Counted from the stretch's first letter, positions 5,380-26,575 are shown. The stretch is 64,000 nt of DNA from Candidatus Gorgyraea atricola (GCA_030765235.1 JAVCCW010000001.1:35172-99171); one strand, 5' to 3'. Numbers and translations: made by a program. The notes: generated from the letters alone by a model not told the origin.

Positions 5380-8300
5380 CTAGAGATCGCCCATCCGAAC
5401 TTTTATGGTTTTCAAGTTATCAACAAAATCTAAAACTAAATGAGTTCTATTATACCCCAGCAACTCTATTAGATCTTTGCGTTCAATCTTGAAGTGTTCT
5501 GCTGCTCCTGGTCCACCATAAAATCCCCAACGAATTATATTCTCTCCTAATAACCCATGGAAGATAATCTCTTTTCCTGTGTCAAGATTTTTTATCCTGT
5601 ACTTGCCTCGCAAAGATAACGTCGGCCTCTCATTAAATGCTGAGGCAATCCTGTCAGACTGCTCATGCGATATCTCAAAATTAAAATGAGTATATCTGTC
5701 ATAAAACCGTACTGGCTTTGCCAACATCCCCCCAGGACCAACCACCCTATCAAGAAGCGCTATCCCATTTACTAACACTCTCCCTAATTTCAAATGACTT
5801 AAGTTCTGCTCGTCTATCACTTCTATATTAGCCTTGATTAATTCTTCTTTGAGATCATCATTTTCACCTAAAAAATTCCGGTCCCTATCTCTGCCTGACC
5901 TTAGCCGCTCCTGAATCTGTTCAACTGTATCTCCGCCCAACATCAGTACCGTACTTATTGCCGTAGTGGTATTTCTCCCCAAAACAGTGAACTTATTCGA
6001 ATCTTTATTAAGCGCCACCAAGGCCGTACTCTCCTCTGCAAGATGTATCTCTTCGGGAAATTCTATCCAACGCGGTCTGCCCTCTTCATCTATAACAAAA
6101 TCCATATTACCTGCATGCAGTTTACATAGCTGTTGCCCCTCATAACTATCATCCTTAATCAACCCCCTTACAATAGTTGAGTTAGTAATAGGGTCTGACA
6201 TAACACCTGCATGAGGTTTGGCTACGACCAATTCTACGTTATCGTTCTTTTGATTATAAATCAGAAGTACATTATCATCCAAAGTAAGATATACTCCTTC
6301 CACAGCTTTCTTTAACACTCTTTTAGCGACCAAGTCCTCTATTTGATGTGATACACTTCGTTCTATGGCATTACTATCCTGCTCGACTTCCTCTGAGACC
6401 CAACCTAACTGCCTGCCTACTGAAATTTCATTGCTACCATTTAAGAAAACGAGGCTCCTGTTCTCAGCATCATACCTTAAAGGAACGACTTTCTGCTCAT
6501 AATCAAATGACCATTTTGTCCAAGCAACCTCCTCTATTTTACCTGTGTTCTTTGTACAGACATCAGGCTTATCTTTGTCTTCATATAGATCCTGCCCCTG
6601 ATAAATTTTTATATCAGGCAGACCTATTTTTTTACGGTCTGTATAAAGTCCTCTTAAACTATCATCTTCGTTAAGAAGCAATACATATACGCCATTTTTG
6701 TAAACTTTAGCCGCTATTTCTTTAAAACCTATATCTTCAGTAAGCTGCACCTTATTAATAGCTACTGGCTTATGCTCTGATTCCCATTTCTTAACATCTG
6801 CCTCGTATTCTGTTTCGTTGGCAAAGAATATATGCCGAAGTGCCTTTTCGAAAGGATAATCGAATTTCCAGCCAATACTTTGTATCTTAGAAGAATCGCC
6901 TATCATTGTCCCTGGGAATCCTGGCGTTGGCATCCGATAGGCAATATTTTTCTCCAAATCTCCCATGCTCAACGCCCTCATAATACTCGCTATCATTTCA
7001 TTTATACCCCAGACCTTCTTCAAACCCACATTAAATACCGCTGCTGAATTCTCTGGCGTTCCTTCCCATTTAGCATGTTTCAAAATATGCAAAATACCTT
7101 TGGCTAAATCTGAAACGAATATCACATCTCTGCCAAAATCCCCTGGCATTATAAATATAGGCACTGATTGATTATTCTCAATCGCCCATATTGTCTGGGC
7201 TACCATATTGGCATTCCTGCCTTTTTGGAGCTCCTGACGGCCTGCATTATATACACTAAAATTCCTGGAGGCGTAAACATCAGCTTCGTATTCATGATGA
7301 TAGTGCTTAGCCACTAACTCCATACTTAGCTTCATAAATTCATATGGGGTTATCCACTTTTTTTCTTCAAGATGATTATCTTTTATCTCAACAAATTTAT
7401 CGAGTATATCCAATGTCGGCACTTCGCTAACTAGCTCGCCTATCGGGAACAACTTACAAAACGAACTTGTTGAGGCAAATACCGTACGAATATCATACAT
7501 CACAGCAAGATCCATCACAGTCTTAAATTCATATAAGCTTGTTAGCACCTCCTGCGTAACACAATGAGGAAAACGACCAGCATAAAGGGCTAACTCGGGA
7601 GAAAAATCATTATATAAAATCCTCAACAACTCTCCAAATTCTGCTTTAGTATTTATTCTGGCATACATTACCTCTTCTGGGGTAATTTTATCTATTTTTC
7701 TTGACCCGCTTAATTCGTCCACCATTTTATTCCATTTTATTGCTATCTCTTCTGGACTGCCTGTCCAATTCAACCACTGTGGAAATCCCCTTGTAACAAA
7801 CTGCGGTTCTGAAGAATACCCTCCTAAATATACTATACCGTTTATTTTCTTATAATCTTCTGGCCGATACTGCCGGCAAAAGCTGCTACTATCCTGCCTT
7901 AACAGTTTTACTCCTGGGATATTGTCATTTGCTGGACTGCCTAAAAGCAGGTTATCTACAGTTACCACTTCTTCATCTTGATTGACCAGCTGAAGAGCTG
8001 CCTCATACCCTATCATGCCTGCTGCTCCTATAACAACCTTTGTTCCGGGCTTAATAGGTTCATTATCGTTCTTGAAAAGCACATGAACGCCGTTACCTAC
8101 AGGATTATTTACATCGCTTGGAAAACTTGCATATTTCTTTGGTCTATTATGACCAATCGCCTTCATTTTTTTTGCTGGAGTTAATAACGCTAACGTCTTC
8201 CCTTTCACCGTTACTCTATTTATAGACTCCTTTACTCTTAAACCTATTGCCGAAGCCTTCCTGACTAAAGGATCGCTGTCATTGCTCAAAGTATTGTTTA

Positions 8301-10458
8301 AAGCGTCTTCTGCTCTTGGATCATCGAAATTACCTAATGCTTGAGTTGCAGCTTGGCGAACACGGCTTCTTTCATGTTTATCTCCCGATACTTCTATTAG
8401 AAGTCCTATTGCTTTCTCGCTCTGCATTCTGCTTAAACCTTCGGCTGCAGCTTCAAGAATAGCGCTATTTCTAATATTTCTATCCCTTGATCTTAATAGT
8501 CCTATCAAAGTTTTCTCTGCAGATACGCCTCCTATTCTGCCTAAGGCCCTGACAAAAGCCGCTTGACCATCTTTAGCTAATGCATTTTGCAAAGCCTCTA
8601 CTGCTACTTGGTCACCTATCTCTCCTAATATGTAGGCTATTTCTAAACGAACACGAATATCATCACTTGACTTTAACTCCTCTTTTAATAAATTTAAAGC
8701 TGCTTGACCTTGTTCTATTAACAATCCTGATATTGTCCTGACAGCTATTTTATTGCCAGACTCTATTGCCTCTTGCAATTGTTGCATCAAAAGACCTGCC
8801 GTGGCCACATTCTCTCCTGAAGCCAAATAATCTTTGACTGGCTGTAAGGCTTCAGCTAAAATACGCATCTTTTCTTTTCCGACTTCGCCAGCTAAGTCAA
8901 CTTCATTCGGTGTCTTAATCGGCACAAATTGGTCATCCCTGTCTATTACCACAGCAATATAGGGCCAGATTGTTGTAAAATCTCCTGTATAGCGCTCTAA
9001 TTGCAAACCAACATAAATATATTCAGTTGCGCCTATTGTCTCCTCGGTTTCTTTAACATCTATATATACTGGGATATCAACAGCATTGACTATTTCTGTT
9101 AATTCTTCAAAGCTTAATTTCTTATCATACTCATCAGAAAGTTTAAACTGATTAAATAAGCCGTCTACTGAAAGAAGAAACATCCCTGTATTAAAATATG
9201 GGTAAAGCCTCGACACTTCTTCTTTGCTCATTTTATCTACCGATTCACTTGCCTCTTTAGTAAAAGCTGGTTTTTCTACGATCTGTGTTGTCTTTCTGCC
9301 ATCTAGATATGTTATATCAGCATACAAACCGCCTTTTTCTCCTCTATTATCTCCTAACAGCGTCATAAAAACTGGCTCAGGTCTATTTTCTTTTTTGGCC
9401 TTAATGATTTCTTCCTCAAATAAGCCTTTTAATTCATCACTTACCTTACCCGCAGGATTGTTCATATGAGAATAAAAGATAAATTTGGTCTCATTTCTTT
9501 TTAATTCAGCCAATACATTGCTTAGGACAATCCACTTGATAAAATCCCAATGTCCAGCAGGATTAAAAACTAAATTGCCTTTCTGTGTCCTTAAAGGGTC
9601 TCCTGCCTTACCCATTTGAGTAGCAATACCTCTGTCTAATGCTTCTATGGTATTTTGCATATCTGCCCCAGTCATCTTCCCGTCTTTGACAGCTTTTCTT
9701 AATTGTCCTGCTTTTTTCTTTCGATATTCTTTCAGGAATTTATCAGTAGGATTAAGACGGATCTGCATGCCTTGTTTAAACACCTTCACGTTTTCTTTGC
9801 CATAACCAAAGTAATCATTGTCTTTCAATAGTTCTTTTACTGTATCTGCAGTTTGAAAGCTTACCATTATAACTTCGTCTTGCTGTAACTCAGGGTCATT
9901 AGCAGCTCTTTTTAAATCATCCCTGGCTTTAGCTGCTGCAGCAAACTTTAGCTCCAGAAATGAATGAGGATTAGCGTCGAGTCCTGGTATCACAAAACTA
10001 AAAGCGGCATTAAACAATCCTTTTGTCCTGGTAGAAAGGCCTCCTGCAGAAAAAGCAGAAGCACTTTTTATCTTTTTGCCAAGAGCAGTCCATCTAATGA
10101 TATCTTCCGTAGACTGTTTTCCCATAATTATTGCTTCGGAAGAACCCCGCATACTGCCTTTAATAGCATTGTTTTCGTAAGGAGTCATTCCTTGCCTTAT
10201 CTTTTCTTGAAATACCAGATTAATATCCTCTTCGGTCTCGTGATATTTATATTCTTTGAGTAGTTCTTGCTCATCTTGGATAATCTGAAGTTTCTCTAAT
10301 GTTTTTTTCTTGATCGGAATCCTTAAAGCAGTAGATTTATTGCAGGAATGTAATGGATAGGCGGTATTAGTCGAAAGAAATACTCCAACTAGAATAATGG
10401 CTATAACTTTGATGAAAGGAATTTTGATTTTATTTCTATGGCTCATTAGAATTGGCAT
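5380..10458 (-). CDS. giant secreted multidomain protein (1692 aa). It has an N-terminal signal peptide, a sugar-nucleotidyltransferase-like region, HEAT/PBS-lyase repeats and a Rossmann NAD-binding (epimerase-like) region.
   Basis: Signal peptide ...ILVGVFLSTNTAYPL. The HEAT block runs from about IRVRLEIAYILGEIGD to DPLVRKASAIGL. A GxxGxxG-like motif VVIGAAGMIGYEAALQLV is present. The domain calls come from motif inspection only. Confidence 0.75.
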   Translation of the reverse strand: MPILMSHRNKIKIPFIKVIAIILVGVFLSTNTAYPLHSCNKSTALRIPIKKKTLEKLQIIQDEQELLKEYKYHETEEDINLVFQEKIRQGMTPYENNAIKGSMRGSSEAIIMGKQSTEDIIRWTALGKKIKSASAFSAGGLSTRTKGLFNAAFSFVIPGLDANPHSFLELKFAAAAKARDDLKRAANDPELQQDEVIMVSFQTADTVKELLKDNDYFGYGKENVKVFKQGMQIRLNPTDKFLKEYRKKKAGQLRKAVKDGKMTGADMQNTIEALDRGIATQMGKAGDPLRTQKGNLVFNPAGHWDFIKWIVLSNVLAELKRNETKFIFYSHMNNPAGKVSDELKGLFEEEIIKAKKENRPEPVFMTLLGDNRGEKGGLYADITYLDGRKTTQIVEKPAFTKEASESVDKMSKEEVSRLYPYFNTGMFLLSVDGLFNQFKLSDEYDKKLSFEELTEIVNAVDIPVYIDVKETEETIGATEYIYVGLQLERYTGDFTTIWPYIAVVIDRDDQFVPIKTPNEVDLAGEVGKEKMRILAEALQPVKDYLASGENVATAGLLMQQLQEAIESGNKIAVRTISGLLIEQGQAALNLLKEELKSSDDIRVRLEIAYILGEIGDQVAVEALQNALAKDGQAAFVRALGRIGGVSAEKTLIGLLRSRDRNIRNSAILEAAAEGLSRMQSEKAIGLLIEVSGDKHERSRVRQAATQALGNFDDPRAEDALNNTLSNDSDPLVRKASAIGLRVKESINRVTVKGKTLALLTPAKKMKAIGHNRPKKYASFPSDVNNPVGNGVHVLFKNDNEPIKPGTKVVIGAAGMIGYEAALQLVNQDEEVVTVDNLLLGSPANDNIPGVKLLRQDSSSFCRQYRPEDYKKINGIVYLGGYSSEPQFVTRGFPQWLNWTGSPEEIAIKWNKMVDELSGSRKIDKITPEEVMYARINTKAEFGELLRILYNDFSPELALYAGRFPHCVTQEVLTSLYEFKTVMDLAVMYDIRTVFASTSSFCKLFPIGELVSEVPTLDILDKFVEIKDNHLEEKKWITPYEFMKLSMELVAKHYHHEYEADVYASRNFSVYNAGRQELQKGRNANMVAQTIWAIENNQSVPIFIMPGDFGRDVIFVSDLAKGILHILKHAKWEGTPENSAAVFNVGLKKVWGINEMIASIMRALSMGDLEKNIAYRMPTPGFPGTMIGDSSKIQSIGWKFDYPFEKALRHIFFANETEYEADVKKWESEHKPVAINKVQLTEDIGFKEIAAKVYKNGVYVLLLNEDDSLRGLYTDRKKIGLPDIKIYQGQDLYEDKDKPDVCTKNTGKIEEVAWTKWSFDYEQKVVPLRYDAENRSLVFLNGSNEISVGRQLGWVSEEVEQDSNAIERSVSHQIEDLVAKRVLKKAVEGVYLTLDDNVLLIYNQKNDNVELVVAKPHAGVMSDPITNSTIVRGLIKDDSYEGQQLCKLHAGNMDFVIDEEGRPRWIEFPEEIHLAEESTALVALNKDSNKFTVLGRNTTTAISTVLMLGGDTVEQIQERLRSGRDRDRNFLGENDDLKEELIKANIEVIDEQNLSHLKLGRVLVNGIALLDRVVGPGGMLAKPVRFYDRYTHFNFEISHEQSDRIASAFNERPTLSLRGKYRIKNLDTGKEIIFHGLLGENIIRWGFYGGPGAAEHFKIERKDLIELLGYNRTHLVLDFVDNLKTIKVRMGDL

Positions 10459-10461
10459 ATT

Positions 10462-13400
10462 TTATAATTGATCTCTAGTATCAGGAAACCCTGATAATTG
10501 TTCTGTAAATGTACCGCTATCTTTAATAAACAATTCCGAAACGCTTGGAGCAGATAATACCCTAAGAGGGTACCCTTTTATGCACTGCTGCCAGCGAGGA
10601 CTCTTCTTTAACACATCTAAGAGTTTTATTTTTCTCTCATCCCCATCAATAGAAGCCTCACCATCTTCTACTAACTGTGTAGCCTCGATCCTATCTAGTC
10701 CGATAGACATAGACTCTATCCTGCCGATAAGCTCATCTTTGGTGATAGACCTCATGTTAAATAGATCTGCCACACCCTCACCTAATTGACTGTACTCTTT
10801 TATGTCCTTCCATGATAAATCCCATTTGTAATAAGCCCATTCTGTCAATCCCATATGATGACTCATCAGTTGCCGCATTTCTTCATTTTCAAAAATTTCC
10901 TTCAGCGGAGTATTTTCCATCTTGAAAATCTTACCATCAGATAGGTCAATATAAGCAGCTCCAGCATCTTCAAAACCACCAGTGCCTTCTTTTCTGGAAA
11001 CCTTAGCATCTATCAGCAATAACCTGCCATATGTCCCGACCTTGCTTATATGCCCCCCCATAATTAAATCCACATCGCAATCCTTTGCCATCCTCTGGGT
11101 GAGCATTTCGCCACTAAATGAGAAGCTTTTATCTTTTACACCAGTAAACTTATATACCGGATTATCCGACTCACCTTCGTTCAGAAAACTAAAACCAGAG
11201 AAATTCTTTACCTTAAGATAAAGCAGGGCATATTCTCCCATGGCCAAATTTGTATGTGCCCATTGAATAAGCTCTTCGTTATCAATATCTTCCCTTAGTC
11301 TTTCCCACATAAACTGAGCAAACTGCAAGAAGGTAAATCCTTTGATAAGATATTTCTTACCACTCTTGCGGTAATTATCCTTCTGAACTTTTAACTCTTT
11401 TATCTTAGCCCATTTTAAGAATTCCTTGAAATCTATGCGCTCTACTTCATACTCATGAACGCTCTTGTCTTGATCCATTGCCCAGGGCACGGTATGCATA
11501 AGAAGAATCTTTTCAGAGCCGGCCTCGACGATTTTATATAAATCACTTCTAAGCACGTCTTTCACTAATTTCTTGGCTTCAGGGCTCTTTTTAATATTCT
11601 CGGTTATCTCCTGCATAATCCCCTGCCAGTCCTCTGAAAGAATAGCCAAAGGACGATGCTTTTTTATAGCTTCTTTTATCTCATCTATGCTTCTATATTT
11701 ATTTGCATTTTCCTCAGACATCAAAGGCCAAAGATACTCAATGCGAGTTTTAGCAAACTGATAATCATCCGTTTCTGCTATTGAAATCAAATAAATCATT
11801 AATGCTGCTAATTCTGCTTTTGATTTTGGACCTCTCTTACTGATACCTGTAGCTTCATCTATTTTATTCTTCTCTTTTTCTTCTTCTATGCTAATTCCTT
11901 CATAACTTTTTTCAGCCAGGTTTTTGAATTTCTCTATAAGTTTTCGATCGATGCCTAAGTATCCTATCATATTATCCATTGCCTCTTTGCCATAGCGATA
12001 TCCATGCAAAATAGCATGGGTAATATAATCTGGTCTTCCTAAAGCAGCCAGCATAAACCAGAGGTCATGATTGCCAACCAGGATATCGGCCTCTTTCCAC
12101 ATCTCAGGAGCAATCCATGCAGGCCCCCTGTCAACCCAATCTCCAAGTATAGCCATCTTCACCTTACCTTTATATGTATTCTTTAAGGCCTTAAATAAGA
12201 CATTAATGGTTACAGTAGTACCATGCGGATCGCTAACAATAAAATACGTTTCCTTTTCCTGATCTAAATCTTTTACTGCGTCTTTTAAAGGCGTTAACCT
12301 ATCGCTATGAGTCTTTGTTCCTATAGTATATAAATACGCATACTTGGTTTCCGCATTGTATCTAAACAAAGTGATTGTTTTTTCATCTATAGATATGGAA
12401 TCCAGTGGTAAATGTTCAGCTGATGACAGCTGTATCTCCTGATAAGATACCCAGCCTTGTGTCTTGACGACCTTGCTGTATTCATTTGGATCTTTAGTAA
12501 ACAGAAATATCTTTTTTCCCTGCGTACGAGCATACGTAAATGTCCGTGATGTACAATTTTTATCTGAAGGTGGCCAGACCCAAATAATAAAATCGTCTTT
12601 CCCTAACTGCTCCATCATCCATTGCCCTCTTGCCGACCCCGTATCTCTCAAAGATCGTAAACCAATGATTCTATCATCAGGAGTCATTTCAAATTTGACC
12701 CCTTTGGACTCCAGATGTGGCTTTAATTCATGCGCTGTTAGGTTGTCAATGCTCTTTCCCAGCCCAACATGATTTAAATACTCTTGCGCTTCAGCTTTGG
12801 TAATTTTGTTTCTTTCAACATTAGCATAACTCTTTATTGTGTTCCCATCTACCAATCTCCATGGCCTTACATCTCTCTTATCTCTTCCCTGGCCCACCAT
12901 TGTAACTCGATTTCCCTTGCCTCGCTGTACCATTGTGCCTACAACTATCCGATCTATCCCCTGAGGATCTTCTCCGACCAATACCTCAACATTCCCCCTA
13001 TCAGCTAAAAGTTCAGCTACATCCCTTGCAAACTTTTTAGCATCATCATCCAGGTAATCACGGGTACCACCAAAAAGCACCTTTATCTTTAAATCCTTCT
13101 TCGCATCAAGGTATTCTTTAATATAAACTACATCACGCATAAGATGAATATTTTCTATAGGCGCTTTGCCTTTTATGGTTTCCAGATGTTGCTGGATTTC
13201 TGCAAGGGCGGGGATGCTGGGCGTTAGAATAGTTGTCTTGACTGTCTCCGCTTTTGGATGCTGAGGCTCAACATAAGTCACCTTTTCCTCATCAATAGAG
13301 AATATCTTTTTGCCTTCACCCTGTGCGTATTTAAATGTCCTGGATGTGTGTGAATCGCCTGTAGCAAAGAGCCAAACAACAGAGTCATCTTTTTCTTTGA

Positions 13401-15411
13401 GCTGATCTATTGTCCAGCGGCCTCGCATTGACTGTTTATCTCTATAACTTAGGCCACTTGTCATAGAAGATGGAACTAACTCAAAACTGACTCCTTCTGA
13501 CTCTAAGTGTCTTTTTATCTCCCCATAAGAGAGTCCATAAATATCTTTTACGATCCCGATAGCTTTTAAATATTCATTAACTTCACTTTTACTGAGGTCT
13601 CCTCTAGAGATATATCTTTTTAGCATGGTCTCATTGGTAACTCTCCATATCTCATCGTCTTTTACACCTACAATCACAAGACTGGATGGTTTACCTGTTT
13701 TAAAAAATGCTGCTATAGCCAGCCTATCTATGCTTGTAGGATCATCGCCGATAATTAACCGAACATTTTTATTCTGGGCTATAAGATTCGCAAAGACATC
13801 GATAAAAGATTCACCTTTAGTACCTAGATTCCTGCTTCCGCCAAAGAATATAGACGCTTTGCCTTTTATGGTTTCCAGATGTTGCTGGATTTCTGCAAGG
13901 GCGGGGATGCTGGGCGTTATATTTGGATTGGAGGCAAGGGATGTAGAAGGTTTGATATTAATTATATATTGTCCTTCTTTCTCTTCTATCACAAAATCTC
14001 CGTGTGTCTTTTCGATCTCAAGTGCCTTCCTGATATTTTCAACAGTAAGCCAATCTATCTCACTCGAGATTTTTTTTACTATATCTTGCGGCATCTTTTT
14101 TATAATTTTTGGGATTATTTTGTGAACTATCTCTTCTAGTTCTTTGTTGTTTTTCGCTGCCTCAGTCGCTGTAAGCAAAGTATATCTAAAGCTAGAAGCA
14201 CCTGAACATTCTATTCCCAGATCCATAAGCAGCTCCAATTGCTCCATATCTTTTGCTATATCAGATACTTCTGACAGCATAAGGCCGATTATACCTGCGT
14301 CGCCTTTGGTAAATCTTATGCTTAAATTGGGCAGCTGATTACACATATCTTTTAGTTCAGTTGTATTCTGTGCCAGTTTAGCTGCTGCGGAAACACCCCA
14401 TCTTCTAAAGGGATTATCAAGGTCTATATTATTCTTGTCGAATTCTATATTTAACTTAAGTAAATAATCACACATATCTTTTAGTTCAGTTGTATTCTGT
14501 GACACTTTTACTACTACTAGCATGTGAAGCTCTAAAGTATGACCAGGATATATTTTATTTTTAGCGAATTTTCTTGCAAGGCTGCGAATAAGTTTCAATG
14601 CATTCTTTCTTTCGGTGGCAATTGTGAACTTTTCATTTATCGCTTTTTCCACTGTTTTCCACTCCTTAAATATCCACCCAGGTCTTGTGCTAAATACCGC
14701 GCCTTTCTCTTCCAATGCCACAAGTGCAGCTTGGCCTCTAGGATCTTCCACATCCTTAACTATAACCATCAATTCTGGGATAGATTTTTCTTTTCCATAT
14801 AATCCCATAAATTCTTTTACCAGCATAACCTGTTTATATAAATCCTCTTTTTCTGTGACTATGTTTCCTTCTCTATCTTCATTGTATCTATCTAAAATAT
14901 TTTTTGTCTCAACAAAATCAAATATAGGAGCTTCTTTTAAAATTACAGAAACTACTTTATCATCTTGCATATAAGTAATACCTGTTATAGCCTCCTCATT
15001 AAATTCCAGATGAGATTCTATGGAAGAAATTAAAGCAACTATCTTGGTTCCATCCTTTCTTTCTGCTATAGAAGCCTTTCCTTCATCGATCAACTTTTGA
15101 ACTCTATCTTTAGACATTGCTTTTTCAGGATATAGAGAGGCGACTTCTTTAACTGTAGCAAGATAATTTAATGCTTCTTCTGATGTTAGGTATCTTGAAA
15201 GGTCATATTTTCTTAAAAATAACGCTTTTTGGGTCTCTTGTATGCGCTCATCATTCCTGCGACTATCCAGCCTCACCCTAAGATTTTCAGATAAATCATC
15301 AGAAAGCGCGTATGAAGAATTTGCAAGTAGAAAAGTTACGAGGATTATAAAACTTATCGTTTTCCCCATCTTCTTGCCCCCCCTTAATAATACTTTGTTA
15401 AGGTCTAACAT
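10462..15411 (-). CDS. giant secreted multidomain protein (1649 aa). It has a signal peptide, two tandem DprA/SLOG-like Rossmann modules and a PPP-family metallophosphatase domain.
   Basis: Signal peptide ISFIILVTFLLANSSYAL. A duplicated module of about 250 aa (FGGSR...GIDR...) is present. The metallophosphatase motifs GDWVDRGP and GNHD are present. It lies 4 nt upstream of the 5380..10458 gene, suggesting an operon. Confidence 0.75.
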   Translation of the reverse strand: MLDLNKVLLRGGKKMGKTISFIILVTFLLANSSYALSDDLSENLRVRLDSRRNDERIQETQKALFLRKYDLSRYLTSEEALNYLATVKEVASLYPEKAMSKDRVQKLIDEGKASIAERKDGTKIVALISSIESHLEFNEEAITGITYMQDDKVVSVILKEAPIFDFVETKNILDRYNEDREGNIVTEKEDLYKQVMLVKEFMGLYGKEKSIPELMVIVKDVEDPRGQAALVALEEKGAVFSTRPGWIFKEWKTVEKAINEKFTIATERKNALKLIRSLARKFAKNKIYPGHTLELHMLVVVKVSQNTTELKDMCDYLLKLNIEFDKNNIDLDNPFRRWGVSAAAKLAQNTTELKDMCNQLPNLSIRFTKGDAGIIGLMLSEVSDIAKDMEQLELLMDLGIECSGASSFRYTLLTATEAAKNNKELEEIVHKIIPKIIKKMPQDIVKKISSEIDWLTVENIRKALEIEKTHGDFVIEEKEGQYIINIKPSTSLASNPNITPSIPALAEIQQHLETIKGKASIFFGGSRNLGTKGESFIDVFANLIAQNKNVRLIIGDDPTSIDRLAIAAFFKTGKPSSLVIVGVKDDEIWRVTNETMLKRYISRGDLSKSEVNEYLKAIGIVKDIYGLSYGEIKRHLESEGVSFELVPSSMTSGLSYRDKQSMRGRWTIDQLKEKDDSVVWLFATGDSHTSRTFKYAQGEGKKIFSIDEEKVTYVEPQHPKAETVKTTILTPSIPALAEIQQHLETIKGKAPIENIHLMRDVVYIKEYLDAKKDLKIKVLFGGTRDYLDDDAKKFARDVAELLADRGNVEVLVGEDPQGIDRIVVGTMVQRGKGNRVTMVGQGRDKRDVRPWRLVDGNTIKSYANVERNKITKAEAQEYLNHVGLGKSIDNLTAHELKPHLESKGVKFEMTPDDRIIGLRSLRDTGSARGQWMMEQLGKDDFIIWVWPPSDKNCTSRTFTYARTQGKKIFLFTKDPNEYSKVVKTQGWVSYQEIQLSSAEHLPLDSISIDEKTITLFRYNAETKYAYLYTIGTKTHSDRLTPLKDAVKDLDQEKETYFIVSDPHGTTVTINVLFKALKNTYKGKVKMAILGDWVDRGPAWIAPEMWKEADILVGNHDLWFMLAALGRPDYITHAILHGYRYGKEAMDNMIGYLGIDRKLIEKFKNLAEKSYEGISIEEEKEKNKIDEATGISKRGPKSKAELAALMIYLISIAETDDYQFAKTRIEYLWPLMSEENANKYRSIDEIKEAIKKHRPLAILSEDWQGIMQEITENIKKSPEAKKLVKDVLRSDLYKIVEAGSEKILLMHTVPWAMDQDKSVHEYEVERIDFKEFLKWAKIKELKVQKDNYRKSGKKYLIKGFTFLQFAQFMWERLREDIDNEELIQWAHTNLAMGEYALLYLKVKNFSGFSFLNEGESDNPVYKFTGVKDKSFSFSGEMLTQRMAKDCDVDLIMGGHISKVGTYGRLLLIDAKVSRKEGTGGFEDAGAAYIDLSDGKIFKMENTPLKEIFENEEMRQLMSHHMGLTEWAYYKWDLSWKDIKEYSQLGEGVADLFNMRSITKDELIGRIESMSIGLDRIEATQLVEDGEASIDGDERKIKLLDVLKKSPRWQQCIKGYPLRVLSAPSVSELFIKDSGTFTEQLSGFPDTRDQL
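13162..13226. repeat. 65-bp perfect direct repeat, copy 1, inside the giant gene (internal domain duplication)
   Basis: It is identical to 13855-13919 and encodes TPSIPALAEIQQHLETIKGKA. Confidence 0.9.
13855..13919. repeat. 65-bp perfect direct repeat, copy 2
   Basis: identical to 13162-13226. Confidence 0.9.
14341..14372. repeat. 32-bp direct repeat, copy 1, inside the giant gene
   Basis: acacatatcttttagttcagttgtattctgtg, repeated at 14470-14501. It encodes QNTTELKDMC. Confidence 0.85.
14470..14501. repeat. 32-bp direct repeat, copy 2
   Basis: identical to 14341-14372. Confidence 0.85.
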
Positions 15412-15484: not shown

Positions 15485-15515
15485 AAGTATACCACGGAAA
15501 ACGGTTTCTTTCAAG
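15485..15515 (-). promoter_or_regulatory. putative extended -10 promoter (TGgTATACT) with a shared upstream motif, for the giant-gene operon
   Basis: The minus strand reads GAAAGAAACCGTTTTCCGTGGTATACT. The same GAAAnCGTTTTCGTGGTATA motif is found at 26545-26568 upstream of the third giant gene. Confidence 0.45.
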
Positions 15516-17441: not shown

Positions 17442-17456
17442 ATGAAATGAATTCTA

Positions 17457-19713: not shown

Positions 19714-19856
19714 AATAAAACCTCGTTTTTCGTTATTCGGTTGCGTAAATCGAATCGTTATTCGTTGATAGGTTGCGTTTTATTACGTCCAACGATTAAC
19801 GATCAACGATCAACGTTTCGATCTACGCAACCGTACAGCGTATAACAATCTTGTAT
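19714..19856 (-). promoter_or_regulatory. upstream region of the ots/treT operon, with short direct repeats
   Basis: TCGTTATTCG x2, GGTTGCGT x2 and (AACGATC)n (ccaacgattaacgatcaacgatcaacg). Confidence 0.35.
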
Positions 19857-20159: not shown

Positions 20160-21217
20160 TACTGTGCCTTCTCCTGTGCATAATTTATAGCGCGTATTGG
20201 ATAAGGTATGTTAATGCCTTCTTTAGCATAGCGCTCGTGAAGCCTTTTTATAAACTCATGCTTGATCAGATAATTATCTACGAATTCCTTTGCGCGCAGA
20301 ATAACCGTAAAATTTATACTAAAATCCGCGAATGTATGGTAGCGGATAAAAGGGTTAAACTCCGGCACCCCGCCCTGCACTATCTTCATTACGTCTTTAC
20401 CCACCTCGCAAGTCACCTTTTCAACATGCTTCAGGTCTGAATCATAATGCACACCCACCTGCACCAGCACTGCCAGCTCCTTCTGTGGATAATAATAATT
20501 TATGATCTTCGAACTAACCAAGCTCTTATTAGGCATTACCACCACATTATTCGGCAGCATCCTTATCCAGCTCGAACGCCAGCCAATCTTTTCCACATAA
20601 CCCTCTTCTCCTGAATCAAGCTTCACAAACTGGCCTACCTTTATCGGCTTATCAATAATGATCTGCATGCCCGCGAATAAATTCTCCAATGTCGGCTGTA
20701 AAGCCAATGCCACAGCCAAAGAACCAATGCCAAGTGAAGCCAGTATAGGCGTAATGGATACCCCAAAGCTATCCAGAAGTATCAAAACACCCAGCGCTAT
20801 CACCACTATCCTTACAAACCCTCTTACAACCCCGCCAGATGTCTTTAATATATCCACCTTGTGCGAGTAATTATGTACGAAGTTATTGGTCAGCTTATCT
20901 AAAAATAGAATAATAGCGACTATCGTGGTCGCCTTAAATGCCAGTATCACATAGCGCGTCAGCTCAGAATTAGCGCTTATAGGAGAGATCCTTTGGATAA
21001 TAAATACACCACTGGCAAATATCAATAATGTTAAAGGAAAGTTCAATGCGCCCAACAAGATATCATCCAGCTTAGAACGCGTGCGGCTACACAGCTTCTC
21101 CACCCGCTTAAATACCACCTTTTTAACAACTAAAAGTACGCTCACCCACACAAAATACACCACAGGTGCATATATGAAGGCAGGAATCCTTAAACCAAAT
21201 AGAGTGATTTCTTTCAT
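20159..21217 (-). CDS. mechanosensitive ion channel, MscS family
   Basis: N-terminal TM helices plus the MscS beta-domain IKVGQFVKLDSGEEGYVEKIGWRSSWIRMLPNNVVVMPNKSL. Confidence 0.8.
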   Translation of the reverse strand: MKEITLFGLRIPAFIYAPVVYFVWVSVLLVVKKVVFKRVEKLCSRTRSKLDDILLGALNFPLTLLIFASGVFIIQRISPISANSELTRYVILAFKATTIVAIILFLDKLTNNFVHNYSHKVDILKTSGGVVRGFVRIVVIALGVLILLDSFGVSITPILASLGIGSLAVALALQPTLENLFAGMQIIIDKPIKVGQFVKLDSGEEGYVEKIGWRSSWIRMLPNNVVVMPNKSLVSSKIINYYYPQKELAVLVQVGVHYDSDLKHVEKVTCEVGKDVMKIVQGGVPEFNPFIRYHTFADFSINFTVILRAKEFVDNYLIKHEFIKRLHERYAKEGINIPYPIRAINYAQEKAQ

Positions 21218-21271
21218 AATATATTCATAATAAACGAGTTGGGCGAATTTGTCAAGAAAAATCAGAAAACA

Positions 21272-21319
21272 TCAAAAAACAGGCCTTTTGCGTAAGTCAA
21301 TAAACAACACAAAAGGCCT
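21272..21319 (-). terminator. intrinsic terminator downstream of the 1723-aa giant gene
   Basis: The minus RNA reads AGGCCUUUU-N22-AAAAGGCCU followed by GUUUUUUGAUGUUUU. Confidence 0.5.
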
Positions 21320-21330
21320 TTAAACAATCT

Positions 21331-24300
21331 TTACATTGAACTATCTAGTACCTTGCTTCTTTTCTCTATGGTATCTAATATGCTAGGTCTTGCCTTCTCT
21401 AATATATCAGCTACTTCATCAAAATATGCCTTGAGCGCATGTCTTGTATCTTCATTGTTCTCATCAAATATAAGACTCATTGCCCAGCCAGGCTTATCCT
21501 TAGCAACTAATTTTCCATCTTCTAATTTCTGGCCGTCCTCTCGCTTAATATCATATCCAGAAAGTGCCAGGAGATTACCCAGCCAGTGCATCTTTAAATA
21601 ATCAGATGAATACTTGACATTTGAGTTCTTAAATTGCTCAAGATGATTCATGCCGATTAAAGATGTAGTAAGACACTTCTGAGCAGCCTTAATCATGGCA
21701 TGATATGCATGACCTGAGCCAGGAAGCTTGCCTACGTCAGCAAACTTTTTCAGGGTCTTTCTCCATAATACATCATCTCCATGATTCAATACATCCCGCA
21801 TGGCCAAACCATCTTTAGTATAAGATGTCTCACCAGAGTGCGCCAATTCGCCATATTCAATATCCCCTTTCTTTAGAGCAATACTGTGGATAGCTGCAGA
21901 TACATGGGCTGGATCAAATATATTTAGAGCCCTGCCTGTTTTGGCAGAAAGAGCTTCGAGTTCATTTATCAATTCCTCTTCTGTAAACAATCCCCTCTGT
22001 ACCATAGCATGCCAATTCAAGGTAATCTCATCTTTTGTAGCTGCATAGCGGCTTTCTGTTATAGCCTTAATTGTCCTTGTAAAATTAGCCTTCTTAAGCC
22101 TCATCCAGTCCACAATCTTTTTATAAAACTCTACTGGTGGCTGGTCTACTGCGCATATATTCCACTGCTCTGCAACGCCGAATACTGACCAGTGAACTAC
22201 ACTCATTATCCTGGCTAAAAGCACCTTATCATCAAGCTGTTGTGCTGCCTCATCATCATCAAAGTCTAAGACCATAACTGAATATCCAGCCTTCTTTAGC
22301 TGATCTATCTTTTTCTCAGAAACATTCGTCAATCCTTTGACTCGTATAACCAAAAATGCCTTGTCATTCTTACCAGTGACAACAGGCTCGCAGTTTTTGA
22401 GGTCTAAATCATCATTCATCACTATCTTTAATAAATGGTCCCTGTCTTTACCCAAAGACTCTTCAAAATCCTGCTTAATCCAGAGCGCTCCATCTTCCCA
22501 CGCGCCTTTTGAAGTATCGCCCTGCCATTCTTTGGGTATGGTAGTTACTATCTTGTTAATGCCTTGCTTCTCATTCATCACCATCCATGCGGAAACCGGC
22601 ATGGATTTTCCAAGAACTTCCTCTTCTTTAATATTAGCTGCGCTAACCCATTTTTGTAAGTCAATACCTGCCAGGGCTAAGGGCAAAAGCATACCATTAG
22701 TATAAGGCCCGTCATGCCTGCCTGATGTAGTAGCATTGCCTTTTAAATTAGGCATGCTTGCATCAGCTTGATCAGGCTGGTGCACGATCCTTTGGCAACC
22801 TTCTAAAGCTTTATCCACATATGAATTATCAATAGTAATCTTGTAAAAATGATCCTCTAGTTTAAGTCCATATTCTGCAAAGATTGGCTTTAAGGCATTA
22901 TCTGCATTATACACAGGCTCATAAGATGTCATACCTAAGGCCTGAGCAACAACCACGGTCTTTTTTAAACCCCTTTTCAAGGCTATCTCATAATCCAAGT
23001 CTAACTCACCTGATTTTTCTCTCTCTTGCTCAACTATTTTGTCGTATATAAACTGCAATGTCTCAGAATCCACATTGTCCACTCCGAAAAATATAAGCTT
23101 CTTTCCATTAACCCCCTCAATAGCTTTAGTAGCAATAGCGGCATTCTTATCCTCTATAGACCCGCCCATGCCTGGCCAGATAACATATTCTACATCTGTT
23201 TCGTAGGCATCGTTTAAGCGTTTGTTTATACCCTTTGCTGTCTTCTGGGTCCTCTCTATTAGCTTAGGGCCCAGCTCAGGATCATTAAGCGCCTTTCCTA
23301 AATAAAATGCGCCAAGATTTATCTTATTCACCTTACCTGGCTCAGAACTAGGCTCGCAAAACACCTCGATAAGCGGATGGTCTCCAATATTTAACTTTTC
23401 CGGATCCTGCGACGTCTTATTCTTCTCATCCCAGAACAAAGGATTCCAAATCCCTTCTTTTAAGGCATCATAAATCTTCTTCGCAAGCGTCCTGATGTTT
23501 TTCTTTGTAGGGAGAATTGGCGCTTCTTCCTTCACAGGCGTCATCCTAGTTATGTCCCGCTTGCGAGCTGTTACCTTTTCAGGACCATCGGGTAACTGCA
23601 ATCCTAACTCTTCAAAACCATTTATCTTTATCCCTTCCATGCTAACCTCGAAAGGCACATAGCCCTTTAAATTTCCTGTACCATGAATAATTTTTTTTGC
23701 TTCTACTTCTGTCAAAAGGTCTATCCCCATCGCTTTTAGGATATCTATAGCAGCTTGTTTTGTTTCTTCTGTTATCACTCCTATATTAGATGAGGGTCCT
23801 CCTGCACCTAAAGGCTGCGCTGCTATATGCGCCTCGTTTAGTTTCTGAACTGCACTATGTATGGGTTCCATTGTGTAAAGACTCATCTCTCTAAGTTTCT
23901 CGCCACCTATTCTGTCGTATAATTCTTTAACTAACCCATATTTGTCTTTATGTTTTTCTTCAAAAGCCAGTTCTGCAAATTTAGACGCATAACCAGGCAA
24001 CCCTGTTTTGCCTTCATGCGCATCAATTGCATTCCTTATCCAAATCCTGCAAAGCTCATCCCGTATCCAGACATATCTTAATACACCATCGATTAACGTA
24101 TGCCAATCTCCCTCTTTGTATGCCTGGGCATTTCGTGCTGTTATGGCTTTGAATTCCCCGAGTAAGTCTATTCCCTCTTTAATTCTAAAGCGTATAAAAT
24201 CTGTCCACATCTCATTAATCAACGCTGCTGTCCTATCGTCATCCGCTTCTCCATCTGTATACCCCTTGCCTGCCTGGACTAAAAGAAAGCGGTCTTCTAT

Positions 24301-26502
24301 CTCTTTTATTTTTTCTTCAGTGGTCGCTAATGGTATTGCTAATGCCCCGTAAGTATTAACAAGTTCTCCTTTTTCGTTTTTCTGTCCAGATCTCCATACT
24401 TGCTGGTGTATTCCGCCTGTTAAAAAACAAAGATGACCCTGGCCGCCTGTCAGACCTCTAAATACATCATTCTCGAGTTTTACTGCTAAGGCAAAGATAT
24501 CTGCTTGGCTGAGGTTTGCTCCGCTTAATATACTTGCAGCTGTTATGACTGACATGCTAAAACCATTTGAAGATTCCATGCCTCCTGCCAATGCCATTGC
24601 AGGAACAGGAGGACATGTTATCCTTATGCCTTTTAATCCACAGAGATTAGCAAATACAAAAGCTGGCAAAAATCTCATATGTGCTGTACCGTTTTCATCG
24701 AGTGCTACATTTCCTTTCACTACGAGAGGTTCGTCTTCTGGGATTCCATAATCAGGAGCAACATATTCTATAGCATCCGGATCATCTGCTGCTTCGATTT
24801 TTATAGTTATGCCCATCTTGCTTGCTATAGCAACTGTTGATGGAAATTCCTCTATTTTTTTAGCTTCAATTTCAGTGTACTCGTCTTGGAACTCAGGTAG
24901 ATCCAGGCTTGAACCGCCTATTACATCTGATCCCCTTAACTGTCCAGATACAGATGTTTCGATGTCGTTTTTCTTTGCTTCTAATAATTTATTTCTTGCT
25001 TCCTCAGCGCTTACACTAGGATTAACCCATTTTTTTAACTGCTTTTCGCTCACGCGTTTACGTAATCCAAAATTTATCTTTGGGTCAAACAAATATCCTT
25101 CCACCAGCACTGCGTCTCTTACTGCTTTTCTTACCTGCGTCAGGGTCTCCTCACCTGCTCTATCCAATGTGCCTCTCTGAAGCCCCTTGCCTATTACCTT
25201 TTCTGCTGCCACTTGCATGTCTTTTAAGTCTTCATGGGTAAGACCATCAAATTCAGGTGTAAATGCAGTTGTGCCGTCTTTTCTTCGTTCGATAATCCCT
25301 AACCGCTCACCGAGTCTAAATTCAGCATCAATTGTATAATCTGAAAATGGTTCTCCTGATTTTCTATCCCTTCCTGCCTCTTTCCTCACCTGTTTTAGAT
25401 TACTGGTATTGCATACACCTACTTGATCTATAAGCGTATCCAATAGACCATAGAAAGCCCCTTCGGTCTTGGGTTTAGCGTCTAAACTAAACGCAAGACC
25501 AGCGAGTGGTTCAGCACTTATTATATTTGCAAGCATTTTCCTGAGTGCTCCCTTGGCCTTTAAAGGATTATCTGGCCACCAACCTTTATCCATAATTCTT
25601 TTTATGCCCTTATAACCTTTTGCAACCAAAAACTTGTAATGTTCTGGTTTATTTAATTTAAGCAATTTAAAGAAATCGTCTATTTTGTAGGAGTGCAAAG
25701 ATTGATAAACCATGATATCATACATAGGTATGCCAACATCCCATAGATATCTTACATGTTCATCAATAACCCATTCTGGATCATCTGTTTCCTTATTCTT
25801 GTGCATTATCTCCTCTAATATCCTTTCAAAAATAACACGTGACAATGTATCAGTATAGTTCGCTTTCATATGTTTATAATACTTCTCGTCGTCCTTATTA
25901 GTAAGGCCTTCTCCTAGTATGTAACGCTCATATAAATGATGAATCCCCTCGTCAATTGCTATATAAACTGTCTTATTTTTCTCGTCATAATATCTCCTTG
26001 CTTGAGCCTTAAGAACACCTGACTTAACTGAAATAAATTTTATTTCTTTGGCACCCAAATTCCATTCCTTGCGAAAGTTTTTAGCAAAGATATCTAGAGC
26101 CAACTCTTGGGTCGGCAGTAATCTTCCAAAAAATCCATTAAAAATATCTACTACAAACCGCTCTAATTTATCTTCATGTGATGGCAAATCGGTAGTAATT
26201 AGATCACGTGGCTTCGCATCATCTATAGCAATACCTTCTAAAAAATCTTTCATATTTGCTGTTTCCTCAATCTTATTCTCCTTACTCAATACCTCTCTTA
26301 AGGTCGGCCCTGGCATGACTACGCCCATTATAAAGCTCTCGCCTTCTTTGGCAGCCTTGCTAGTCTGTTCTACCATACCAGGATTTCCCTGTAAGGCAGG
26401 CCGCAATGAGTTGGAACTGGGGATTGCATATGCTGTATTAGTTAATAGGAAGGTTATGATGGTAAGCGTAGAGATGATTCTATTACATAGATTGCTCTTC
26501 AT
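21331..26502 (-). CDS. giant secreted multidomain protein (1723 aa). A GHMP-kinase-like motif region and a sugar-phosphate-isomerase-like region are suspected.
   Basis: Signal peptide IISTLTIITFLLTNTAYAIP is paralogous to those of the other two giant proteins. AGGMESSNGFSMSVITAAS resembles the GHMP PxGSGLGSSAA motif. TSGRHDGPYTNG is loosely PGI-like. Both domain calls are weak. Confidence 0.7.
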   Translation of the reverse strand: MKSNLCNRIISTLTIITFLLTNTAYAIPSSNSLRPALQGNPGMVEQTSKAAKEGESFIMGVVMPGPTLREVLSKENKIEETANMKDFLEGIAIDDAKPRDLITTDLPSHEDKLERFVVDIFNGFFGRLLPTQELALDIFAKNFRKEWNLGAKEIKFISVKSGVLKAQARRYYDEKNKTVYIAIDEGIHHLYERYILGEGLTNKDDEKYYKHMKANYTDTLSRVIFERILEEIMHKNKETDDPEWVIDEHVRYLWDVGIPMYDIMVYQSLHSYKIDDFFKLLKLNKPEHYKFLVAKGYKGIKRIMDKGWWPDNPLKAKGALRKMLANIISAEPLAGLAFSLDAKPKTEGAFYGLLDTLIDQVGVCNTSNLKQVRKEAGRDRKSGEPFSDYTIDAEFRLGERLGIIERRKDGTTAFTPEFDGLTHEDLKDMQVAAEKVIGKGLQRGTLDRAGEETLTQVRKAVRDAVLVEGYLFDPKINFGLRKRVSEKQLKKWVNPSVSAEEARNKLLEAKKNDIETSVSGQLRGSDVIGGSSLDLPEFQDEYTEIEAKKIEEFPSTVAIASKMGITIKIEAADDPDAIEYVAPDYGIPEDEPLVVKGNVALDENGTAHMRFLPAFVFANLCGLKGIRITCPPVPAMALAGGMESSNGFSMSVITAASILSGANLSQADIFALAVKLENDVFRGLTGGQGHLCFLTGGIHQQVWRSGQKNEKGELVNTYGALAIPLATTEEKIKEIEDRFLLVQAGKGYTDGEADDDRTAALINEMWTDFIRFRIKEGIDLLGEFKAITARNAQAYKEGDWHTLIDGVLRYVWIRDELCRIWIRNAIDAHEGKTGLPGYASKFAELAFEEKHKDKYGLVKELYDRIGGEKLREMSLYTMEPIHSAVQKLNEAHIAAQPLGAGGPSSNIGVITEETKQAAIDILKAMGIDLLTEVEAKKIIHGTGNLKGYVPFEVSMEGIKINGFEELGLQLPDGPEKVTARKRDITRMTPVKEEAPILPTKKNIRTLAKKIYDALKEGIWNPLFWDEKNKTSQDPEKLNIGDHPLIEVFCEPSSEPGKVNKINLGAFYLGKALNDPELGPKLIERTQKTAKGINKRLNDAYETDVEYVIWPGMGGSIEDKNAAIATKAIEGVNGKKLIFFGVDNVDSETLQFIYDKIVEQEREKSGELDLDYEIALKRGLKKTVVVAQALGMTSYEPVYNADNALKPIFAEYGLKLEDHFYKITIDNSYVDKALEGCQRIVHQPDQADASMPNLKGNATTSGRHDGPYTNGMLLPLALAGIDLQKWVSAANIKEEEVLGKSMPVSAWMVMNEKQGINKIVTTIPKEWQGDTSKGAWEDGALWIKQDFEESLGKDRDHLLKIVMNDDLDLKNCEPVVTGKNDKAFLVIRVKGLTNVSEKKIDQLKKAGYSVMVLDFDDDEAAQQLDDKVLLARIMSVVHWSVFGVAEQWNICAVDQPPVEFYKKIVDWMRLKKANFTRTIKAITESRYAATKDEITLNWHAMVQRGLFTEEELINELEALSAKTGRALNIFDPAHVSAAIHSIALKKGDIEYGELAHSGETSYTKDGLAMRDVLNHGDDVLWRKTLKKFADVGKLPGSGHAYHAMIKAAQKCLTTSLIGMNHLEQFKNSNVKYSSDYLKMHWLGNLLALSGYDIKREDGQKLEDGKLVAKDKPGWAMSLIFDENNEDTRHALKAYFDEVADILEKARPSILDTIEKRSKVLDSSM

Positions 26503-26544
26503 ATAAATTCTCCTTTTGTTAAGCAGATTTTAAATATATTTATA

Positions 26545-26575
26545 ATATACCACGAAAACGCTTTCTCGTCAATCA
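26545..26575 (-). promoter_or_regulatory. putative extended -10 promoter (TGgTATATT) for the giant gene, sharing a motif with 15485-15515
   Basis: The minus strand reads GAGAAAGCGTTTTCGTGGTATATTAT, then about 40 nt to the RBS AAAGGAG and the ATG. Confidence 0.45.

Follow-up and report, generated by a model that had tools for sequence, protein, structure and literature searches.

Three long genes and their enzyme modules

A stretch of 64,000 nucleotides (nt) from the genome of Candidatus Gorgyraea atricola (GCA_030765235.1, JAVCCW010000001.1:35172-99171), hereafter the window, contains three very long genes, here called G1, G2 and G3, whose products string several enzyme-like modules together behind a short N-terminal leader. 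All three are intact open reading frames (ORFs) on the minus strand, as is every other feature of the window for which coordinates are given below. G1 (5380..10458) encodes 1692 residues and is 100% identical over this length to an NCBI protein (P0001) of the metagenome-assembled genome (MAG) of the same organism, a member of the Omnitrophota within the PVC group. G2 (10462..15411) encodes 1649 residues when read from the first ATG, and G3 (21331..26502) encodes 1723 residues downstream of an AAGGAG Shine-Dalgarno sequence. No Shine-Dalgarno sequence accompanies the first ATG of G2, at 15411; the second, at 15369, has one (AAGGGGGG) approximately 8 nt upstream. The second ATG is probably the start, giving a protein of 1635 residues that begins MGKTISF and whose N-terminus then resembles the other leaders. 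Only 3 nt separate the stop codon of G2 from the start of G1, and the two are therefore taken to be co-transcribed, with G2 as the first gene of the operon, and are probably translationally coupled; G3 constitutes a second unit. Beyond the leader, pairwise comparison detected no similarity between the three proteins. Judged by their sequences, the trio can be assigned to a class of long multi-enzyme proteins of the Omnitrophota, as small members of it.

In G1, the leader (10354..10458) is succeeded by a nucleotidyltransferase that resembles the UDP-sugar pyrophosphorylases (residues 71-539, 8842..10248) and has an AGGLSTR loop at 138-144. The corresponding Pfam family, UDPGP (PF01704), scores 26.4 bits on the fragment, above the cut-off of 22, and 21.5 bits on the whole protein. 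Just two relatives of this domain were found in the word-indexed protein collection, P0002 and P0003, whose C-terminal domains share 39-42% identity with it. It is joined by a linker of HEAT repeats at about residues 550-745 (8224..8811; HEAT_2 70.7 bits, together with HEAT_PBS and alphaRep matches in the PDB) to an extended short-chain dehydrogenase/reductase (SDR) of GalE/RmlB-like type at about residues 805-1212 (6823..8046), which has an insertion of about 150 residues. The SDR scores 53 bits with Pfam Epimerase (cut-off 20.9), is matched by galE, heptose epimerase and dTDP-glucose dehydratase models and by PDB entry 6dnt, and displays GxxGxxG at 811-817 and YxxxK at 1039-1043. No module was assigned to the C-terminal 480 residues.

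The leader of G2 (15304..15369) is separated by a stretch of about 460 residues without module assignment from two modules of about 250 residues in tandem (residues 497-742 and 743-1000, 12412..13923). These are 43% identical to each other, are both opened by the boundary peptide LETIKGKA, and both contain FGG(S/T)R and G(D/E)DPxxIDR. The repeats found no family match in Pfam, NCBIfam or the PDB, where a profile search gave insignificant SLC12 matches only; their single-sequence AlphaFold model was unusable (pLDDT 33), and their likeness to SLOG/DprA is at the motif level only (FGGxR ... GxDPxxIDR). Metagenome scans with the repeat alignment or with the whole of G2 revealed no relatives, and nothing useful came from comparing whole G2 with PDB sequences. 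The repeats are followed by a metallophosphoesterase (10912..12264) in which all of the metal-binding motifs are intact (DPHG 1060-1064, GDWVDRG 1090-1096, GNHD 1113-1116, GGH 1451-1454). It scores 26.1 bits with PF00149 (Metallophos) and 28.0 bits with PF06874 (cut-off 27), the latter as a match of the fragment only that is not listed for the whole protein (E 9e-7; 240 residues, profile positions 186-427 of 639). For this PPP-type phosphatase, the best family match is class III (Firmicute-type) fructose-1,6-bisphosphatase (FBPase).

Two modules also make up most of G3, behind the leader (26425..26502) and a region of about 440 residues without module assignment. The first (residues 466-990, 23533..25107) is GHMP sugar-kinase-like, as established with an AlphaFold2 model and Foldseek, and carries GGMESS at 640-645 (motif II), TGGQGH at 685-690 and LGAGGP at 898-903 (motif III). 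The model, made with nine homologues, reached a pLDDT of 83 and a pTM of 0.80. It gave 137 PDB matches at E<=1e-3, and the 50 listed were all GHMP kinases or decarboxylases, headed by the heptose kinase WcbL (4usk, 1.2e-9) and then by an HddA-like kinase, galactokinases and mevalonate kinases. Pfam GHMP_kinases_N scores 17.6-19.4 bits on G3, below the gathering score of 22.3, and 25.9 bits on a homologue (P0020). A profile of the GHMP-like alignment had no match to the PDB by sequence; the fold was recovered via the structure model alone.

The second module of G3 (residues 1005-1703, 21394..23490) is a divergent phosphoglucose-isomerase (PGI)-like domain of about 700 residues, detected by a profile search of the PDB. 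All 8 PDB matches of the nine-sequence profile are glucose-6-phosphate isomerases, at 2e-9 to 2e-7 (7nss at 2.2e-9, 1zzg at 1.1e-8, and also 7e76 and 6otu). The module contains PGMGGS at 1110, SGRHD at 1260, EESLGK (within W.KQ.FEESLGK) at 1347 and QPPVEFYK at 1454, and the last three align with the active-site motifs GRFS, ESLGK and QPGVELGK of 7nss, which represent the catalytic-site Arg (GGRxS), Glu (ESxGK) and Lys (GVExxK) signatures. Neither PF00342 (PGI) nor NCBIfam matched this module or its stand-alone homologues; in another protein (P0012), the region after the GHMP-like module scores 29 bits with Pfam PGI (cut-off 22). Whole G3 found nothing useful amongst PDB sequences, and a word-index search returned no relatives from a collection that has only a 363-residue fragment of G3.

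A sensitive search with residues 540-1723 of G3 recovered 241 proteins at E<=1e-3. The two modules were matched separately and at varying positions, both in proteins of 1,000-7,944 residues and in stand-alone proteins of 500-680 residues, and therefore represent two independent evolutionary units. Across many genomes the module families retain 40-68% identity, and the architectures that bear them change quickly. The closest relative of the G3 PGI module (P0008, 68% identity) has a leader of the same type (FLFTNNVYALP...STLRPP) and a different N-terminal half. As fusion partner, the kinase module has aldose 1-epimerase in P0011, a PGI directly downstream in P0012, in the same order as in G3, and B12/radical-SAM and UDPGP domains (UDPGP 69 bits) in P0024. 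Named members of the match clusters are proteins of Omnitrophota MAGs (P0010/P0161 and P0012) and one stand-alone PGI-like protein from a Bryobacteraceae MAG. In a scan of one genome per species, the kinase core was found at 23 loci, 13 of them in Omnitrophota MAGs; by MAG label, the remaining ones belong to the Elusimicrobiota (3), Planctomycetes (3), Clostridia (2), Thermofilum (1) and Patescibacteria (1). Two further architectures were recorded amongst these proteins. P0010 (3946 residues; locus L002, 1916-13756) unites the leader, a PGI-like module and a CsrA domain, an RNA-binding regulator, in one Omnitrophota protein, and immediately after its gene comes an operon for an ABC sugar transporter (SBP_bac_1 and two permeases). 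An ORF of 3467 residues that is open at both ends (locus L005) carries GHMP-like modules in tandem, at ORF residues 1217-1731 and 1747-2252.

An earlier note on this DNA, made from the sequence alone, had described the three proteins as carrying different sets of enzyme-like domains: in G1 a nucleotidyltransferase-like and a Rossmann NAD-binding domain with HEAT repeats, in G2 two DprA/SLOG-like modules and a metallophosphatase (GDWVDRGP, GNHD), and in G3 a GHMP-kinase-like and an isomerase-like region. The three ORFs are uninterrupted as described, and five of the six domain calls were verified, the G3 kinase by its fold and the G3 isomerase as a member of the PGI superfamily, so that the enzyme-like content is real and not merely one of structural or repeat domains. 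What did not stand is the picture of a miscellany, as the content follows a coherent theme of sugar phosphates and nucleotide sugars. The FBPase, PGI, anomeric/heptose-type kinase, nucleoside diphosphate (NDP)-sugar pyrophosphorylase and 4-epimerase/dehydratase-type SDR, as activities that follow one another in these pathways, look like a gluconeogenic and Leloir-type sugar-activation set, and the fusion of the kinase to aldose 1-epimerase, PGI or UDPGP in relatives is what would be expected if these modules served one pathway.

The shared leader

The leaders of G1, G2 and G3 align with those of four other proteins of the window, giving seven in total with I, L, Y, L and R invariant. The leader of G1 reads ...HRNKIKIPFIK, then VIAIILVGVFLST, then NTAYPLHSC...ALRIPI. 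In G2, MGK is followed by TISFIILVTFLLA and NSSYA, with LSDD...LRVRL past the putative cleavage site; in G3, MKSNLCNR is followed by IISTLTIITFLLT and NTAYA, with IPSSNSLRPAL past it. The common plan comprises a net charge of +1 to +4, a core made up of 12-13 apolar residues and a polar c-region with (I/V/S/A/T)-Y-A at its end, followed 2-12 residues later by LRxx(L/I). A single hydrophobic segment is present in each protein, and the net charges of the N- and C-terminal flanks of this segment are +4/+1 in G1, +1/-2 in G2 and +2/+1 in G3. In 59 leaders of the class, the 15-residue N-flank has a net charge of +2.9 and the C-flank one of +0.1, with the N-flank the more positive in 54 of them. The apolar run is 13 residues long in each of G1, G2 and G3, which is also the class median (in a slightly smaller set) and lies within the 7-15 residues or so of a Sec h-region. 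Small residues at -3 and -1 are present in G2 (S-Y-A before L) and G3 (A-Y-A before I). With its positive side inside, a core too short for a transmembrane (TM) helix and agreement, except in G1, with the -3/-1 rule, the leader is called, by these rules, a putative cleavable Sec signal peptide.

The leader is widespread. Amongst proteins with G3 modules that start with Met, an N-terminal apolar segment is found in 45 of the 69 long ones (at least 1,000 residues) versus 3 of the 50 short ones, and at the genome loci about 8 of 9 long ORFs with complete 5′ ends have an apolar N-terminus. The stand-alone homologues are without the leader. The consensus of the c-region in the class is a small or aliphatic residue, then Y, F or W, then A or S, often followed by x-P. 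Downstream of it, two kinds of motif occur, (S/T)LRxP, as in G1-G3, and LPxPGTMV. The LPxPGTMV subtype, which comes after a (Y/F)A(Q) site, was seen in proteins P0028, P0034, P0050, P0064, P0074, P0087, P0106, P0107, P0116, P0118 and P0150 and at loci L014 and L020. A profile of the leader alignment had no match at E<=10 in a set of 5.8 billion proteins, the profile being too short for a database of such size. Other types of sorting signal were rejected: a prepilin-type leader for want of the G-F...E motif, a Tat-type leader for want of a twin Arg, and a lipoprotein-type leader because G1's LHSC is neither conserved nor a canonical lipobox; C-terminal sorting signals were likewise considered and rejected. 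The earlier note had reported similar signal-peptide N-termini in the trio, and the peptides that it quoted are indeed present, with a positive n-region, a core of 12-13 residues and a small-aromatic-small site. Its view of them as a private paralogous set of the trio has to be given up, as the same leader heads four more window proteins and most long Omnitrophota proteins with the same modules.

The four additional window proteins are the products of tandem paralogous genes, S1-S4 (38103-39950, 40054-42648, 42653-46240 and 46267-48243; 615-1195 residues), in which the leader is KKLISTLILIVILTHQPIYA followed past the cleavage site by QSLRNPL. The C-terminal ends of S1 and S2 are DNA-binding domains of Fis type (HTH_8) with scores above the Pfam cut-off, an oddity in proteins that have a signal peptide. 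The S1-S4 genes have a lower G+C content, of 0.35-0.37. Two other signal-bearing proteins of the window, a Memo-AMMECR1 fusion and the product of 58034..58492, are without the Y-A...LR pattern; it follows that the leader marks the large modular proteins specifically and is not simply a generic signal peptide of this organism. The Memo-AMMECR1 fusion (region 32148-34808) has a lipoprotein-type signal, LLVFLFSC, and adjoins a radical SAM gene (33831-34808). Memo, AMMECR1 and radical SAM together make up the AmmeMemoRadiSam system, normally regarded as cytoplasmic, to which these two genes putatively belong. The fusion is a further example in this genome of an export signal ahead of a 'cytoplasmic' protein. 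The protein at 58034-58492 (152 residues) has TLTTYYPAPYGAYDEL right after its predicted cleavage site and no Pfam match.

Promoters and genomic setting

The G2-G1 operon has a promoter at 15486..15514 (TTGAAA, 17-nt spacer, TATACT) and G3 has one at 26544..26572 (TTGACG, 17-nt spacer, TATATT). Both are sigma-70 promoters of the extended -10 type, with TGG before the -10 hexamer, and have in their spacers a common 12-bp palindrome, GAAAnCGnTTTC or GAAA(C/G)CGTTTTC, which takes the form GAAACCGTTTTC at 15497-15508 and GAAAGCGTTTTC at 26554-26565. The pattern GAAANCGNTTTC, derived from these two sites, occurs twice in the 64 kb, at exactly the two sites, versus 0.11 occurrences expected. The palindrome was absent from 25 other loci scanned, and the promoter of the S4-S1 cluster (TTGACA, 17-nt spacer, TAAAAT) is without it. 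With one indel, the two promoter regions align over about 50 nt with a score of 23, which was reached by 0 of 1000 shuffles (mean 11.2, standard deviation 2.1); an ungapped comparison was not significant, and the likeness appears only with the 1-nt indel. Moreover, when the 18 upstream regions of the window were compared with one another (153 pairs), the G2/G3 pair was the best, scoring 22 versus 19 for the next.

A promoter motif shared by the two units, and co-regulation as its consequence, had also been put forward in the earlier note. Both sites exist and have the extended -10, and a single consensus for them needs the 1-nt indel. Co-regulation is probable, as the promoters share more than sigma-70 hexamers, form the best of the 153 pairs and contain a palindrome found only twice in the window. 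Given its symmetry, its central CG and its site between -35 and -10, the palindrome would most simply be the operator of one dimeric repressor. GAAAnCGnTTTC may resemble operators of LacI/GalR type, palindromes of 14-18 bp with a central CG; no LacI-family gene is present among the annotated genes of the window.

The gene order in this region, all on the minus strand, is glmS, a TP_methylase-family gene, G3, mscS, yggT, otsA, otsB, DUF5752, treT, G2, G1, a phosphoribosyltransferase gene and pyrimidine biosynthesis genes. Thus the mscS, yggT and trehalose genes, which had been named as neighbours in the earlier note, form a block flanked by the units G2-G1 and G3. The products of sugar reactions of the kind described above would be used by otsA/B, treT and glmS. 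The remaining genes of the window are housekeeping genes, including lgt, pheT, trkH and 6S RNA, and there are no secretion or pilus genes among those annotated. A consensus sigma-70 promoter (5332-5360; TTGACA, 17-nt spacer, TATAAT) precedes the phosphoribosyltransferase gene that comes next after G1, and a near-consensus one (21227-21255; TTGACA, 17-nt spacer, TATTAT) precedes mscS. As these downstream neighbours have promoters of their own, read-through from G1 and G3 is not needed for them. The 6S RNA (55722-55907; Rfam RF00013, 87 bits) lies downstream of an mgsA-like gene, and the whole window contains zero tRNA genes. The GC skew of the plus strand is strongly and uniformly negative and nearly all genes are on the minus strand, which is consistent with a position on one replichore arm, with transcription co-directional with replication.

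Site of action and relation to known systems

The reading that we prefer, with slightly less than even confidence, is that modules shuffled independently behind a class-typical Sec leader act outside the cytoplasm, and that the two operons are co-regulated via the palindrome. The whole polypeptide would be translocated by SecYEG, because there is no second hydrophobic segment, and signal peptidase I would cut it after the aromatic-Ala pair. The enzyme string would then act on sugars or sugar phosphates in the periplasm or at the interface of cell and host, and one dimeric repressor would bind the palindrome in both promoters. Several points weigh against this reading. The modules need ATP (GHMP), nucleoside triphosphates (NTP; UDPGP) and NAD (SDR), and the bacterial periplasm is not known to offer any of these. 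The genes sit among the cytoplasmic sugar genes otsA/B, treT and glmS, and the same leader heads nucleic-acid-binding proteins (HTH_8 in S1/S2, CsrA in P0010). The nucleotide- and NAD-dependent modules and the setting amongst cytoplasmic sugar genes speak just as much for a cytoplasmic site. The signal-peptide assignment is rule-based (charge, core length, -3/-1). G1 reads A-Y-P at the homologous cleavage site, which is therefore spoiled, so that another site must be used, and an Arg is conserved early in the mature part of the leader proteins. As for the repressor, the palindrome count is post hoc, because the pattern came from the very sites that were counted, and orthologues of G2 or of the promoters were not found in the scans, with the result that conservation of the operator cannot be shown. 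We regard as quite unlikely the broader proposal that Gorgyraeia run part of hexose entry and sugar activation (FBPase, PGI, anomeric kinase, NDP-sugar synthesis, epimerisation) on exported chains, in an ATP/NTP-dependent manner in the periplasm or at the host interface, with the chains sorted by a phylum-specific leader plus the mature N-terminal motif.

It is somewhat unlikely, if far from fanciful, that the chains instead form a membrane-tethered cytoplasmic metabolon, for which the N-terminal segment only provides targeting or anchorage (as an uncleaved anchor, or through signal recognition particle targeting without full translocation). Such strings would supply the PGI, FBPase, sugar kinase, NDP-sugar synthesis and epimerase steps that feed trehalose, glucosamine-6-phosphate and envelope synthesis. 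This would accord with the dependence of the modules on nucleotides and NAD, with ATP and NAD motifs retained, with the embedding of the genes between otsA/otsB/treT and glmS, and with the occurrence of HTH_8 and CsrA domains behind the same leader; moreover, the leaderless stand-alone homologues suggest ordinary cytoplasmic enzymes elsewhere. However, the charge bias places the N-terminus inside in 54 of 59 leaders, a stable TM helix would need a longer core than these 12-13 residues, a length typical of a cleaved signal peptide, the conserved small-aromatic-small site suits signal peptidase I, and there is no second hydrophobic segment to return the chain inside. In its favour, West-Roberts et al. 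themselves doubt the extracellular call for such domains (10.1101/2023.11.21.568195), and a canonical PGI is given for only 67 of 176 complete, mostly Gorgyraeia, genomes in another preprint (10.64898/2026.06.07.730766), the PGI module described here being invisible to Pfam and NCBIfam. If the chains did stay inside, steps that have been scored as missing in Omnitrophota would in reality be provided by them, and part of the inferred host dependence would be an annotation artefact, an outcome nearly as consequential as export.

The proposal of the earlier note that the proteins are effectors of an epibiotic or predatory lifestyle strikes us as very doubtful, and we found no direct evidence for such a role and no secretion apparatus in the window. 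Following Sec export, the chains would have to pass the outer membrane (e.g. by a type II secretion system or pilus-type machinery) into a host or prey, where they would rewire sugar metabolism or regulation. We found no motif known from effectors or translocation, Pfam gave neither hydrolytic nor toxin domains, secretion and pilus genes are absent from the 64 kb, and the coherent anabolic theme and linkage to the organism's own trehalose genes fit self-metabolism better than attack. Nevertheless, an effector role would reconcile a signal peptide with nucleotide-dependent enzymes and nucleic-acid-binding domains, given the ATP, UTP, NAD, DNA and RNA in a host, and the mature N-terminal motif (LRxP, or LPxPGTMV in the other subtype) could be a second sorting signal. 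Omnitrophota have also been proposed to live as predators or episymbionts, and conserved secretion loci are reported to lie close to their giant genes (PMC10066038; 10.1101/2023.11.21.568195). Lastly, the ORFs might be decaying or non-functional mosaics, either hypervariable cargo or an assembly artefact, in which the enzyme pieces no longer work. It could be noted on this side that close relatives are lacking for G2 and for most of G3, that the closest relative of the G3 PGI module sits in a different architecture, and that the G+C content is slightly below that of the neighbours. However, we find this hardly credible in view of three uninterrupted ORFs of about 5 kb, metal-binding, ATP, NAD and PGI motifs that are all intact, conservation of the module families across many genomes, and good promoters and Shine-Dalgarno sites.

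The phenomenon belongs to an already described class, and of the interpretation in the earlier note the signal-type leader, the enzyme content and the probable co-regulation hold. From two preprints, metabolic-enzyme domains in signal-peptide proteins of Omnitrophota are already known (10.1101/2023.11.21.568195; 10.64898/2026.06.07.730766). In the passages of them that were consulted, we found neither the conserved leader with its two kinds of mature N-terminal motif nor the promoter palindrome; likewise, GHMP-like and divergent PGI-like module families are not defined there, and fused proteins with the leader are not set against stand-alone ones that lack it. The conserved leader marks the class, and the candidate operator links two operons. 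Both module families of G3 are missed by standard annotation, and the PGI-like one could explain "missing" PGI calls.

In fold and signature motifs, the modules match Leloir and gluconeogenic enzymes (GalM/GalK, UDP-sugar pyrophosphorylase, GalE, PGI and class III FBPase). They differ from these in being highly divergent, at or below Pfam cut-offs, and in being fused into long chains behind a signal peptide; the PGI module of G3, moreover, has about 700 residues versus 415-550 in known PGIs. G1 is further comparable to P0002 and P0003 (1,674 and 1,687 residues), multi-enzyme proteins of similar size that contain an HAD-like N-terminus, radical SAM, GFO/IDH/MocA and the UDPGP-like domain related to that of G1. 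However, these have no hydrophobic N-terminus and their UDPGP-like domain is C-terminal. Their contig (locus L001, on which they lie at 10001-15025) carries GatD/GatE-type and archaeal-type ProRS genes and the host is therefore probably an archaeon, which suggests that modules are shared between Omnitrophota and an archaeal lineage.

The giant Archaeovorins, as described in the West-Roberts 2023 preprint, have HEAT as their commonest domain, and giant Omnitrophota proteins are reported there to contain PGI, FBPase, HEAT_2, radical SAM and Lysine_decarbox domains with a predicted extracellular location (10.1101/2023.11.21.568195). HEAT repeats, in G1, and the same localisation puzzle are what the trio shares with them. 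In the giants, TM helices can be overlooked, which makes the location of their domains ambiguous. However, Archaeovorins have at least 30,000 residues, many TM helices and a divergent SecA_DEAD domain, whereas G1-G3 are short, have a single segment, and show no Pfam match to a SecA family at E<=0.1, either whole or as fragments. On size, number of TM helices and SecA_DEAD, they are therefore a small single-leader variant and not Archaeovorins.

A closer likeness is to class 1 of Nielsen and Lui 2026, the "multi-enzyme metabolic cluster" proteins of Gorgyraeia, a catalogue with a lower limit of 10,000 residues, in which 94% of the proteins have a signal peptide and/or TM helices and for which the authors leave four hypotheses open (10.64898/2026.06.07.730766). 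Phylum and class are the same, and the chains are likewise tiled by different enzyme families, with a sugar-metabolism set, radical SAM and HEAT scaffolding. G1-G3 have several enzyme families and no dominant repeat, with 2-4 distinct modules each, as well as one N-terminal segment that is a signal peptide by rule, and the two modules of G3 recur in proteins of up to 7,944 residues. They are unlike class 1 in having 1,635-1,723 residues, one leader and no further TM segment. In giant Omnitrophota proteins, up to 147 TM helices are predicted in the longest, possibly miscalled, according to the two preprints (10.1101/2023.11.21.568195; 10.64898/2026.06.07.730766). With dozens of helices that may be miscalled, neither preprint settles the extracellular placement of the enzyme domains. 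In G1-G3 there is exactly one hydrophobic segment, so that topology is all-or-none and an inside or outside location can be tested experimentally. Compared with the giants, the trio presents the same kinds of module at a clonable size, and the question of location and role becomes one for reporter fusions and enzyme assays.

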